This document shows positions 33,001 through 36,000 of a stretch of 64,000 bases of DNA, piece by piece. How positions within the stretch are numbered: the stretch's first letter is position 1; every line of letters starts with the position of its first letter. Source of the DNA: a bacterium (GTDB lineage Bacteria > UBA8248 > JACPRG01 > G963555815); NCBI GenBank assembly GCA_965261595.1, contig CBDHDG010000004.1, forward strand, positions 352,001 through 416,000. Reading direction: 5' to 3'. A program made the position numbers.

Positions 33001-36000
33001 GGCATCCGGGTTTTCGCCTATTGCCTCATGCCCGATCACCTTCACCTCGTCGTGTCTCTCGATGGGCGGGGCAAGAGCATCCCGGCATGGCTTGGGGACT
33101 TCAAGAAGCTGACGACAAAAGCGGGTTGGGATTGCGGTCTGGAAGGAGGCTTGTGGCAACGCAGTTTCTATAACCACGTTGTACGGCGTGACGAAAACCT
33201 GGAATCGATCTGCCGGTACGTGTTGGAGAATCCGGTGCGAGCCGGAATGGTCACAAAAACCGACGAATACCCGTTTTCAGGAACGCCGGACCTCATTGCC
33301 CGTTGAGGGTTTTCGGGCCGGTACGGGGACCGGCCCCTACGAGAAACAACGTTGTGTGCCGTAGGGGCGGGTCCCCATACCCGCCCGCAAAAACGGTCGT
33401 TGCGAATATCCGCTACACTCCGCCGAACATGGCGACCGGTGCGATCCCTGCGGGAAGCGGTGCACGAGACCTTCGGTTGGTGAGAAACACGCGCCGGGCG
33501 AGGTCACCCCTTGACCAGCACCAGCCTCCACTCGCCGCCCGAGACCTTCTCGGCCGTCACGGCGTGGCCGGCGCGCTTCGCCCAGCGGGAGATGTTGTCC
33601 ACGGCCAGGGGATAGTCCACGAGGGCGATCAGCCGGTCGCCGCCCGCAAGCCCCTCCATCGCCGACTGGACCTGGAAGAGGGGATCGGGGCAGACCTGTC
33701 CGCGCAGGTCCAGGGTTTGCTCTTTCATCCGCTCCGAAGCCTCCTTTGAAAGAACCAATACGTTCCCGCCCAGACCCCCAGGATGGTGAAGACGGTCGAG
33801 ACGACGCTGCTCAGCGCCAGGGCCGAGACCCCCGTGAGGCCGTGGCTGATGTTGCACCCTCCGGCCGTCACGGCCCCGAACCCCATGAGCAGTCCGCCGC
33901 CGAATTGTCCGGCCATCCGCTGGGGGGGAGGCGCACGCCACGAGAGCTCCCCCGAAAGGCGCGCCGCGGCGAACGACCCGAACGGCATCGCCAGGACCAT
34001 GAAGACCGCCCAGTTGATCCCCGAGGCGTCCCCCGCCGTCGCGAACCTCGCCATGAGGGCCGTGGGACCGGTGATCGACAGGCCGTAATGCCGGCCGGTG
34101 AGACCGGACAGGAACCACGCCGGCGCCGCCAGCAGGCCGAGGAGGAGGCCGGTCTTCATCCAGCCCCAGCCGAAGAGCGGGACCTCGCGGGGGATCCGAA
34201 TGGCCCAGACAACTACCGCGACCGCGCCCACGCCCACGATGACCCACGGATGGACGCCCAGGAGGTTCGCCAGGGTGGGGACCTGGCCGCCAATCTCGAT
34301 CTCCGACCCCGTCCCCCCCCGGACCCAGAGCCGCACGGGCCGCAGGACCCCCCAGACCGTCGCCGCCGCCGCCAGGCCGAACCCCAGAAGCGCCACGAAC
34401 GAGCCCACCATCCCTTCCCCCACACGGCTCCACGTCCCGCTCGAACACCCGCCCGCCAGGGTCATCCCGATCCCGAAGACGAGCCCGCCCACGACCGCCG
34501 CCCGCCAGTAGAAAGGGACGCGCCACATCTCGAGCAGGCCCAGGGAGGCCCCGAGGTGAATGAGAACGGCCTGGACGGCTACGGCCAGCAGGTACGCCCG
34601 CAAGAGCGTCGCGTCCCCGGCGAACCGGACGGCCCGGAAGGCCGAGTTCATGCAGAACCGGCCGCGCTGGAGGATGATCCCGAAGAGAAACCCGACCGGC
34701 AGGCCGAGGGCGATTTGAAGGGCCATGAAACGGATTACTCGATGACCGGATGCCCGGCCTTGAACCACGCGCCGAAGCCTTCGGCGACGCTGGACGCCCG
34801 GGCGTATCCCCGGCCGGCAAAGAGCGCGGCGGCCGTCGCGCTCCGGAGGCCCTGCTCGCAGATGAAGACCAGATCCCGGTCTTTGGAGAATTCCCCGATC
34901 CGGCCCAAGAGGTCTCCCAGGGAGACGAGGCGCGCGCCTTCGATGACGCCGAGGCCCCACTCGAACGGCTCCCGGACGTCGACCAGCTCGAAGGCGGCCC
35001 GGTTCTCGCTCCAACTCTCGTGAAGCGCCTCGACGGAGATCAGGCCGAGGGGCTCGACCGGCTTCCCGGCGGCCGCCCAGGCGTCCATCCCGCCCGCAAG
35101 GCGGCCAAGGACGTCATACCCCCCGGCAGAGTCGAACCAGCCGCCCGCCTGCCGGACCCGGTCCTCCTCCCCGATGAGGACAACGCGGGAGGGAGCGGGC
35201 GCGACGGCGGGAACGTGCTTCGGGATGCTCCGCGCGCTGAAGGCGATGAAGATCGCCCCGGGAATTCTGGCCTCGCAATATGGGCCGAGGTCCCTGAAAT
35301 CCAGGAGGACGGCCCCCCGCTCGGCGGCCTCTGAAACCTCATCGGGGTCCAGAGGCCGGAGTCCTTCGCTCATGTCGTTCCCCTCCCGCCCAGTGGATAA
35401 CACATCCTTTTTTTATCCACAGATTACACAGATTACGCAGATTTTAAAGGCTGACCCAAGGAAAAAAATCTCTGTAGTCTATGGATCGATCAAGACGGAT
35501 TGCCATCGACGGATTGACACAAGAAAGGCATCCTTAAGGGTGTAATCATCTTCCCTTTTTCCTCTGTGCAATCTGTGTAATCTGTGGATAAAAAAAGAAG
35601 TTCGTCCGTCCCCTATGCGACATGGGCGATCGACGCCGGGGGGAACGCCCCCAGGGCGTAGATGGTGTAGGTCTCGATGGGGGCCAGGGGGTTTCCGTTC
35701 AGAAGTTTCATGAGCTCTTCATGTGATGCCACCTCGAAGATGGAGGCGTAACCCTTCAGCCCGACGATGGGGTGAATCTTCGCTTTTCCCCTTGCTTCCA
35801 GCAAGGAAAAATACTCCACTCACCCCTGGATGTCGGCGCCCTTGGGCATCAGTGCGGGCGGCTCGTTGATGACGAGAAACTTCGGCATGGCGGCGTTCTC
35901 CTTTGGATGATTCAAACAGATCAGGGAAGGTTGAACTCGAAGCCGATGGCCTCCATGGCCTTCCGCTCCCCTTCCAGCGTTCCGAGCGCGTACACTTGGT

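Follow-up and report, generated by a model that had tools for sequence, protein, structure and literature searches.

Gene A, a 91-codon gene near the middle of the window (the whole 64,000-nucleotide stretch of DNA analyzed here), is to judge from its sequence a genuine selenoprotein gene, and none of the computational signs by which bacterial selenoproteins are recognized is missing. Its family appears to be new: the NCBIfam selenoprotein models include none that matches A, and no such family was found in an inventory from 2026 that lists 119 families of selenoproteins. The product is modeled as a small domain resembling muconolactone isomerase (MIase), and selenocysteine (Sec) appears to take the place of a catalytic glutamate. 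We consider it probable that A is the catalytic subunit of an enzyme formed with its paralogue B, and that this enzyme exchanges sulfane sulfur, or forms a selenium-sulfur bond, with a rhodanese. A preliminary description of the locus had proposed both a new selenoprotein family and the likeness to MIase, and both proposals held. The features of the locus are collected in Table 1.

Table 1. Features at and around gene A, in window positions
Feature	Position	Strand	Basis or remarks
Gene A, selenoprotein with predicted MIase-like fold	35613-35888	minus	91 codons, TGA read as U
In-frame UGA, predicted Sec23	35820-35822	minus	codon 23, motif DIQG-U-VEYF
SECIS-like hairpin	35784-35811	minus	7-bp upper stem with loop GGA (35790-35806), above a lower stem
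Gene B, paralogue of A (101 aa) and its proposed partner	35921-36226	minus	homology to A
Low-GC spacer, A to rhodanese	35404-35612	.	inverted pair of a 30-35-bp REP-like repeat
Double rhodanese	34735-35403	minus	Pfam Rhodanese 2.8e-20, two stretches
YeeE/TsuA-type transporter	33725-34726	minus	Pfam Sulf_transp 2.3e-76 and NCBIfam TsuA
TusA-like sulfur carrier	33504-33728	minus	Pfam TusA 2.8e-20
AMP-forming acyl-CoA ligase, benzoate-CoA ligase family	36304-37926	minus	368.5 bits against a cut-off of 375.25

Predicted recoding of an in-frame UGA

Gene A opens with an ATG at 35888, preceded 9 nt upstream by GGAG, and closes with a TAG at 35613-35615. This structure, with the in-frame UGA at codon 23, is the one first proposed, and our analysis confirmed it, together with the alignment of the UGA to a Cys (NIQG-C-IEHL) in gene B, whose product is 43% identical to that of A (E 2e-22). 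TGA is the usual terminator in this neighborhood, ending six of the eight genes around gene A. Were the TGA of codon 23 a true stop, the locus would hold a decayed gene or two small open reading frames, and the functional product, if any, would be the 68 residues that could be made from the GTG immediately 3' of the TGA; gene callers and databases give short C-terminal products alone for the UGA forms (for example P0013, 64 aa). We regard such a stop as highly improbable. In 15 loci the TGA occupies one and the same column; these loci fall into three sequence groups or more (those of the window's phylum, of Rokubacteria, and of metagenomes), with the TGA kept in A genes that are 57 to 97% identical and drawn from two phyla, and purifying selection on gene A is equal on either side of it, with a pN/pS of 0.25 on the 5' side and 0.28 on the 3' side. 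Codons 1 to 22, with a GC3 of 0.91, correspond by homology to strand beta-1 in the Cys forms, and a product that lacked them would have an incomplete fold. A hairpin specific to the UGA forms and the presence of Sec machinery in the genome likewise argue against termination.

The hairpin, CCUUGCU-GGA-AGCAAGG, had been recognized in the preliminary description; its upper stem begins 13 nt 3' of the UGA, and the 71-nt stretch that holds it folds at -32.4 kcal/mol (z -4.35), a value matched by none of 200 shuffles. The form found in other UGA lineages is CCCUCUU-GGAC-AAGAGGG. A hairpin with a 7-bp stem and a loop that starts with GG (GGA or GGAC) stands at the same distance, 13 nt from the UGA, in all 11 distinct UGA forms, whereas some hairpin occurs nearby in 2 of 18 Cys forms and a GG-loop hairpin in none of the 18. 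The bacterial SECIS model calls for a stem-loop shortly 3' of the UGA, at the usual distance and with a G in its apical loop, and the hairpin of gene A agrees with it. Across the four genomes of the window's phylum that carry the UGA form (G000, the source of the window, and G001 to G003), the nucleotides of the hairpin are nearly frozen, and synonymous divergence is 0.29 in codons 24 to 36 versus 0.91 downstream. The stems of different sequence groups differ by three both-sided changes; this covariation amounts essentially to a single split that divides two groups of sequences and involves a register shift of one base, not to many independent events. Scanning positions 35300 to 36300 against Rfam gave chance-level matches only (E 3.5 to 7.7), with no applicable model. 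We propose that Sec is inserted at UGA23 through the SelB/SECIS route usual in bacteria, which the downstream hairpin would steer.

The genes needed for this route are present in G000, with selA, selB, and tRNA-Sec on contig C6 and selD, which carries a TGA of its own, on C5. Matches to selA above the cut-off were also found in G001 to G003 and in the Rokubacteria genome, which makes five of five UGA-form genomes; as a discriminator, however, the presence of selA was rejected, since it was found in four of five Cys-form genomes as well. Contigs from RNA libraries span the junction of B and A, and one crosses the UGA, in each case with strand and DNA carry-over indistinguishable in the contigs. 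Some parts of the window are without cover by RNA-library contigs, which has no bearing on expression. Scans for promoters (1 promoter-like site versus 0.6 expected) and terminators (6 terminator-like sites versus 5.0 expected) were at chance level.

Family distribution, fold, and the position of Sec23

The preliminary description had called the family narrow and its database relatives fragments, and neither statement survived. With a limit of E <= 1e-3, a profile search returned 52 clusters, of which many are full length and carry Cys, and contig scans added 16 genome loci and 23 metagenome loci; the scans used a profile from alignment A4, narrower than A3, which proved too diverse. No longer relatives of gene A were found by a word-index search. 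The tandem pair with one TGA was indeed present, as described, in 4 of the 51 genomes of the phylum; within the taxonomic family it was present in four of the seven genomes. Beyond this phylum, UGA forms came from one Rokubacteria genome and nine metagenome contigs. Cys forms were found in Alphaproteobacteria. Over all lineages, Cys forms with a single domain account for 26 loci, and fused Cys forms also exist. Of the 27 A-type rows in alignment A7, in which U was counted as C, 26 have Cys or Sec at the UGA column. In a tree of 34 A-type rows and 89 columns the deep forks are unresolved, and single and multiple origins of the UGA form are not separated. Gene callers have truncated all examined UGA forms to approximately 63 to 68 residues, and the family is therefore invisible in current annotation; a family model would correct annotation in two phyla or more, as well as in metagenomes from soil and water.

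Membership in the MIase superfamily is suggested by profiles and structural models alike. As reported earlier, A falls just short of the Pfam MIase cut-off (PF02426; 26.2 versus 26.7 bits), and B scores 13.8; two relatives exceed the cut-off (P0003, 38.1; P0008, 31.1), and hhalign matched the A type to MIase-positive relatives at 99.5%. The model for true muconolactone isomerase, TIGR03221, gave A 23.2 against a cut-off of 130.6 and had no match among the 51 genomes of the phylum. The AF2 model of A has a mean pLDDT of 86.9, and its best Foldseek matches are ClcF and MIase, at E 3e-6 and TM 0.76 for ClcF and E 2.5e-4 and TM 0.69 for 1MLI, with a TM range of 0.69 to 0.76 and identities of 22 to 25% over the set. 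As modeled, A is a domain of approximately 90 residues with a beta-alpha-beta-beta-alpha-beta fold, belonging to the muconolactone isomerase/ClcF superfamily.

In the AF2 model Sec23 lies at the N-terminus of helix 1, a place typical of redox-active Sec or Cys residues. Three sequence or profile alignment routes pair it with residue 27 of ClcF. Sec23, which is Cys in orthologues, maps by these alignments to the Glu27 position of ClcF, which we take to be catalytic (PDB entry 3ZO7 is titled "ClcF E27A with substrate"). The A type also conserves K45, Y47, H56, N66, and E72; a second conserved Cys is absent.

Paralogue B, the double rhodanese, and flanking genes

B adjoins A in 37 of 41 loci, and the two are joined in single proteins, either as A-B fusions (P0003, P0008, and P0009) or, in four protein clusters, as A-B-rhodanese fusions (P0004, P0055, P0010, and P0011); P0047 joins B to a rhodanese. 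Scans of species genomes for fused forms, with P0010 and with an alignment of P0004 and P0055, found nothing. The residue of B at the UGA column was correctly given before as Cys in three of the four genomes G000 to G003 and Ala in G003; elsewhere it is S, T, A, or V, and Cys is not conserved in the B type. Most likely, A would work as a heteromer with B.

The rhodanese beside A, which probably begins in fact with the ATG at 35373, is predicted to consist of an inactive N-terminal domain and a catalytic C-terminal domain with its Cys in CEQGLRS. This active loop has six residues, and the Cys is invariant in seven of seven orthologues. The best NCBIfam matches are rhodanese domains of the MoeB/MoeZ type, which are sulfur transferases; against the models for TsoB and LYCAU the rhodanese remains far under the cut-offs. 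Orthologues of the rhodanese adjoin 12 of the 15 UGA-form loci, in two phyla, and the remaining 3 loci are without flanking sequence. At none of the 26 single-domain Cys-form loci is there a dedicated rhodanese, so the family as a whole does not need one.

According to the preliminary description, the pair heads an operon with the double rhodanese, the Sulf_transp/TsuA transporter, and TusA, and the identity of these neighbors in G000 was confirmed with Pfam. The tie to the rhodanese stood, upheld by orthologues in two phyla and by the fusions, but that to TsuA and TusA did not: both are neighbors of A in G000 only and are absent from this place in G001, G002, and G003. They lie in a strain-specific 5.7-kb segment (28987-34733) that is missing from G001, a member of the same genus. 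Nor need the pair head an operon, because the gene of the benzoate-CoA ligase family lies 77 nt upstream of B and keeps this place in G000 to G003. The spacer between A and the rhodanese gave 49 blastn matches over six of the seven contigs of the genome, its own position and the inverted pair included.

In other lineages the flanks are mostly genes of aromatic or acyl-CoA catabolism. An AMP-ligase lies 3' of A in the Rokubacteria locus L032 and 5' of B-A in L060; other flanks hold LigA/LigB (L049), an HpcH aldolase with enoyl-CoA hydratase (L057), a glyoxalase with RidA (L050), a triple RidA (L037 and L040), an amidohydrolase_2 with a hexapeptide transferase (L065 and L060), or a Mo-hydroxylase (L032 and G002). 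No catA or catB appeared among the Pfam matches of the neighborhoods examined, and no search aimed at either was made. These catabolic genes vary by locus, even for near-identical A genes (L032, L056, and L057), and the flanks therefore do not represent a conserved pathway. The trafficking of sulfur or selenium, which the preliminary description had drawn from gene order, keeps its link to the rhodanese but, given the catabolic flanks elsewhere, becomes one reading among others; the flanks fit an isomerase or lyase role equally well as a sulfur relay.

Such a role would make A/B an isomerase, tautomerase, or lyase that serves catabolism in aromatic or acyl-CoA pathways, with Cys or Sec in place of Glu27 as catalytic base or as Michael-type nucleophile. 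The rhodanese would be either an accessory, for instance one that protects or reactivates the selenol, or unrelated to the chemistry. The MIase/ClcF fold, in which Sec takes the position of the catalytic Glu27, agrees with it, as do the conserved K45, Y47, H56, N66, and E72, which resemble an enzyme pocket, the catabolic neighbors (the ligases, LigAB, and the others named above), and the lack of a rhodanese at all 26 single-domain Cys-form loci. We nevertheless think it rather unlikely. The rhodanese is tightly tied to the UGA forms (12 of 15 loci) and fused in four protein clusters, and the flanking catabolic genes are not conserved between loci. To our knowledge, almost all selenoproteins with an assigned function are redox or chalcogen-transfer enzymes, and we know of no precedent for Sec as a plain acid or base.

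A thiol or selenol redox protein, similar to a peroxidase or reductase, is a further alternative, in which the Cys of the rhodanese or, in this lineage, of B would be the resolving thiol and no sulfane sulfur would be moved. It would suit the place of Sec at a helix N-terminus, the aligned B Cys in three of the four genomes, and the general picture that most prokaryotic selenoproteins are redox proteins, with which a review is in line. Against it count the lack of a second conserved Cys in A, the lack of conservation of the B Cys, and the rhodanese itself, with its six-residue CEQGxRS loop and its MoeB/MoeZ-type sulfur-transferase matches; moreover, the neighborhoods examined show no recurring gene for a thioredoxin, peroxiredoxin, or reductase. 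We hold this alternative to be improbable.

Proposed chemistry and comparison with known systems

The exchange of sulfane sulfur between A/B and a rhodanese, which we favor, could proceed as follows. A would pair with B and, in the UGA lineages, also with the dedicated double rhodanese. The persulfide carried by the Cys of this rhodanese would react with the selenolate at Sec23. Sec23 might accept the sulfane sulfur as Se-S-H, or it might resolve an intermediate through a Se-S bond to the rhodanese Cys. The reaction would take place in the MIase-type pocket, with a small carboxylate or acyl-CoA as substrate, possibly the product of the neighboring aryl-CoA ligase. Gene order, fusions, fold, and recoding signals are what we observed; we infer the A/B complex, its contact with the rhodanese, the way in which sulfur flows, and the substrate.

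A more specific version, which we put forward as a speculation and consider unlikely, is a hitherto unrecognized three-part enzyme made of A, with Sec or Cys in place of the catalytic Glu of MIase, a noncatalytic B, and the dedicated rhodanese, performing carbon-sulfur chemistry on an activated carboxylate. In the forward direction, for example, the persulfide of the rhodanese and an acyl-adenylate or acyl-CoA would give an acyl-persulfide, which the enzyme would resolve to a thiocarboxylate; in reverse, sulfur would be stripped from a thio-substituted acid during catabolism. If true, the dimeric alpha+beta-barrel fold would gain its first selenoenzyme, and sulfur insertion or removal a new route.

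Whatever the reaction, the family adds Sec to a fold without known Sec, at the very place where the parent enzymes have a catalytic carboxylate, and this natural replacement of Glu by Sec points directly at the active site. The B-A pairing, the fusions, and the orthologous rhodanese define a three-protein module open to expression and testing, and the alphaproteobacterial Cys orthologues allow biochemistry without a host for Sec insertion.

The closest known structures are MIase (1MLI) and ClcF (3ZNJ, 3ZNU, 3ZO7, and 4FPI; PF02426), with which A would share both its fold and the helix-1 position of its reactive residue, but their Glu27 is replaced by Sec or Cys, and A falls below the Pfam gathering cut-off and far below that of TIGR03221. 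MIase and ClcF, which are linked to genes of the catechol branch, are homo-oligomers (decamers), whereas the subunits here are of two diverged types, A and B, in tandem or fused, and are linked to a rhodanese instead. Tandem short paralogues, only one of which has the catalytic residue, and fused forms are also seen in the alpha/beta heteromers of small catabolic subunits of the 4-oxalocrotonate tautomerase family, an analogy only, as these have another fold and a catalytic Pro1 rather than Sec or Cys. The rhodanese/TusA/DsrE relays and YeeE(TsuA)-YeeD uptake systems likewise set a rhodanese with a catalytic Cys beside a small protein with a single Cys or Sec, but neither A nor B contains a domain of the TusA, DsrE, or rhodanese type, and TsuA and TusA, which follow directly in G000 alone, are not conserved neighbors. 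We know of no MIase-fold protein that acts as a persulfide carrier. Selenium chemistry is combined with a rhodanese domain, as here, in the known rhodanese-related selenoproteins, for which a 2026 review (PMC13188914) lists rhodanese forms 1 to 5 and TsoB; in those proteins Sec lies within the rhodanese domain, whereas at this locus the rhodanese keeps its Cys and Sec is predicted in a separate protein of the MIase fold.

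Evidence for recoding of the in-frame UGA in gene A

All of the features set out in the preliminary description of this locus were found in place: the open reading frame of A, its in-frame TGA, the adjacent paralogue B (43% identity to A, E 2e-22) and, in the B motif NIQG-C-IEHL, a Cys aligned with the UGA of A. A GGAG lies 9 bases 5' of the ATG of A, which runs for 22 codons to the TGA and for 68 further in-frame codons to the TAG; with TGA read as selenocysteine (Sec23), the product has 91 residues and the motif DIQG-U-VEYF.

Positions of genes, segments and related loci (window coordinates unless a locus, L, or another contig is named)
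Feature	Position	Strand	Description
Gene A	ATG 35888 to TAG 35613-35615	minus	ORF with in-frame TGA 35820-35822
Gene B	35921-36226	minus	101-residue paralogue, 32 nt directly upstream of A
A-rhodanese spacer	35404-35612		209 bp, low-GC, with inverted pair of a 30-35-bp REP-like repeat
Segment extra relative to G001 (same genus)	28987-34733		5.7 kb, beginning right at the rhodanese stop; repeated TPR genes, IS200/RAYT-like gene, TusA, TsuA
IS200-like Y1 transposase domain	32806-33306	plus	Pfam Y1_Tnp 3.5e-9
Second segment without counterpart in the collinear G001 contig	20213-27233		7 kb
Tandem paralogous ORFs	42615-43685; 44048-45058	minus	one copy in G001 (L025 14717-15718; 94% and 77% protein identity)
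selD	contig 5, 89297-90265 (L010)	minus	selenoprotein gene, motif KAGG-U-GSK
ORF in related genome G002	L024:9379-9879		167 residues, ~1 kb past rhodanese; weak match to glycine reductase selenoprotein B (PF07355, 4.8e-7)
Xanthine-oxidase-family enzyme in G002	L024:10289-11852		[2Fe-2S] and molybdopterin-binding subunits, beyond the 167-residue ORF
Triple RidA/L-PSP-domain proteins, alphaproteobacterial genomes	L037:2025-3662; L040:1977-3674		546-566 residues, directly upstream of B-A
Second A copy, Rokubacteria	L044:4001-4171		N-terminally truncated; residues 30-85, protein sequence identical; ~6.4 kb from full gene

A is very probably a genuine selenoprotein. The genome carries selA and selB as neighbours on contig 6, a tRNA-Sec and a selD that itself contains one in-frame TGA; selA was present in all five UGA-form genomes and also in four of the five Cys-form genomes tested. 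TGA is the normal stop of six of the eight neighbouring genes, B included, so the codon is not generally reassigned. The opposing reading, that the TGA in A is a true stop or that A is a pseudogene, we consider highly improbable. Across eight representative UGA-form genes, pN/pS of A was 0.25 upstream and 0.28 downstream of the UGA, and upstream GC3 in A was 0.91, which argues that the 5' part is translated in frame under equal constraint. Four related genomes, out of 7 family and 51 phylum genomes, carry the A/B pair, and among them changes in codons 1-22 were mostly synonymous.

The 45 nt 3' of the UGA fold as a hairpin whose upper stem, of 7 bp, begins 13 nt past the UGA and is capped by a loop with GG as its first bases (CCUUGCU-GGA-AGCAAGG in the window). 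This stretch is near-frozen in the four genomes, with a synonymous divergence of 0.29 over codons 24-36 versus 0.91 further downstream. UGA forms outside UBA8248 have CCCUCUU-GGAC-AAGAGGG at an unchanged distance from the UGA, with three both-sided stem changes that cost three amino-acid changes. The hairpin is present in all 11 distinct UGA forms; none of 18 Cys forms has a GG-loop hairpin at the equivalent place, and two of them have some hairpin nearby. The covariation supports recoding but is statistically not deep, since it comes down to about one split between two groups, whose registers differ by one base. The recoding mechanism is itself standard and already known. In selD, a hairpin GGUCC-CGA-GGACC begins 12 nt 3' of the UGA.

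Parts of the stretch were found in six metatranscriptome runs, and contigs of four were compared with it. Two exact RNA-library contigs run from the end of B into the start of A, and one resembling the stretch at 95% extends across the B/A junction, UGA and hairpin with no listed difference at the TGA. These are a weak sign of A/B expression, because contigs show no strand and cannot exclude DNA carry-over.

Breadth of the family and its gene neighbourhood

The family, previously described as narrow, proved to be wider. When 1.84 billion representatives were searched with a profile built from eight A and B sequences, 52 clusters reached E <= 1e-3 and 17 of them E <= 1e-10; the relatives sort into two types. 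The A type has Cys or Sec at the Sec column in 26 of 27 aligned rows (U counted as C), the sole exception being P0017 with Arg; in the B type the aligned column holds C, S, T, A or V. Scanning species genomes gave 18 loci, of which 14 are Cys forms from Alphaproteobacteria and two are the copies in G001 and G002. A Rokubacteria genome holds A with TGA in the Sec column (57% identity) and also the partial second copy, perhaps a fragment that was duplicated or an artefact of assembly. Metagenomes gave 23 loci (10 with TGA at the Sec column, 12 with Cys and one weak fragment).

In local profile scans over all fetched loci, B directly adjoins A in 37 of 41, the other four having <260 nt of upstream sequence. 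Natural fusions join A to B (P0003, P0008, P0009), A to B and rhodanese (P0004, its 67% relative P0055, P0010, P0011) and B to rhodanese (P0047); P0010 and P0011 start immediately past the Sec column, which suggests that they are further UGA forms. A and B probably form a complex, which would be a heteromer with the reactive residue on A only.

All four related genomes have a gene of the benzoate-CoA-ligase family 77 nt upstream of B. An AMP-ligase also comes after A in the Rokubacteria locus and before B-A in L060. Flanking genes elsewhere vary, comprising LigA/LigB, HpcH aldolase with enoyl-CoA hydratase, glyoxalase, amidohydrolase_2, hexapeptide transferase, RidA (single, double or triple; the two-domain form follows A in L063), a xanthine-oxidase-family Mo enzyme and a SoxA/TsdA-type cytochrome. 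These neighbours would fit A/B as a catabolic enzyme, an isomerase or lyase whose base or nucleophile is Cys/Sec, a reading that we regard as unlikely beside the rhodanese linkage of the UGA forms. A double rhodanese adjoins 12 of 15 UGA-form loci, the remaining three being without flanking sequence, in the orders B-A-R, B-R-A or R-B-...-A (R, rhodanese); the same scans found it beside 0 of 26 single-domain Cys-form loci. Between the two phyla it is orthologous, at 34-37% identity, and the Cys of its CE[QE]GxRS motif does not vary; in NCBIfam it best matches MoeB/MoeZ-type rhodanese domains.

Of the sulfur operon proposed earlier, the rhodanese linkage held and the TsuA/TusA part did not, TsuA/YeeE and TusA following the rhodanese only in the genome studied here. 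The REP-like repeat of the spacer gave 49 blastn rows (itself and its own inverted pair included) on six of the seven genome contigs, and also occurs 3' of A in G001. The Y1 transposase may be a REP-associated tyrosine transposase paired with such repeats.

Fold, position of Sec23 and proposed chemistry

An AlphaFold2 model of A built from 27 sequences (mean pLDDT 86.9, pTM 0.75; predicted E3-9, H20-32, E36-40, E47-52, H56-64, E73-79) places Sec23 in the first turn of helix 1. Its best solved match is the 5-chloromuconolactone dehalogenase/isomerase ClcF (E 3e-6, TM 0.76, 24% identity), and it matches muconolactone isomerase (MIase) 1MLI at E 2.5e-4 and TM 0.69. A scores 26.2 against a cut-off of 26.7 for Pfam MIase and 23.2 against 130.6 for TIGR03221; it is a member of the superfamily but not a muconolactone isomerase.

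Three alignment routes put Sec23 on ClcF residue 27: A-type profile position 29 pairs with ClcF 33; Sec23 pairs with Ala28 of the MIase-positive relative P0048 (hhalign, 99.5%), whose residues 17-87 align gaplessly with ClcF 16-86; and the path via P0036 again reaches ClcF 27. The wild-type chain reads S26-E27-K28, and we take Glu27 to be the catalytic acid/base. By alignment, therefore, the Sec/Cys of A appears to stand in for the catalytic carboxylate of the parent MIase/ClcF family. PDB entry 3ZO7 is titled 'ClcF E27A with substrate'.

In UGA lineages, a persulfide carried by the rhodanese Cys would react with the selenolate of Sec23, either by passing sulfane sulfur onto Sec23 or through an intermediate resolved via an Se-S bond, at a MIase-type pocket that would bind a small acid or acyl-CoA. 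Such direct Se/S chemistry between A and the rhodanese is put forward tentatively. A might also be a plain redox protein, which strikes us as improbable.

A full-text search returned no literature linking a selenoprotein with muconolactone, and NCBIfam release 20 holds no selenoprotein model matching A. The work of Deng et al. 2026 reportedly covers groundwater genomes and may list the family as a candidate. A 2026 review inventories 119 selenoprotein families (PMC13188914), with no PF02426, PF03795, PF11746, PF08734 or muconolactone-isomerase entry in the accessible part of its inventory. Nothing like A appears among the nine new selenoprotein families listed in the accessible part of the deep-Sep paper (PMC12013277). 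What is new here is the family, the fold hosting Sec, the module of A, B and rhodanese, and the Glu-to-Sec/Cys swap: MIase/ClcF proteins have Glu27 at the site, whereas A has Sec, and its orthologues Cys, at the aligned position.
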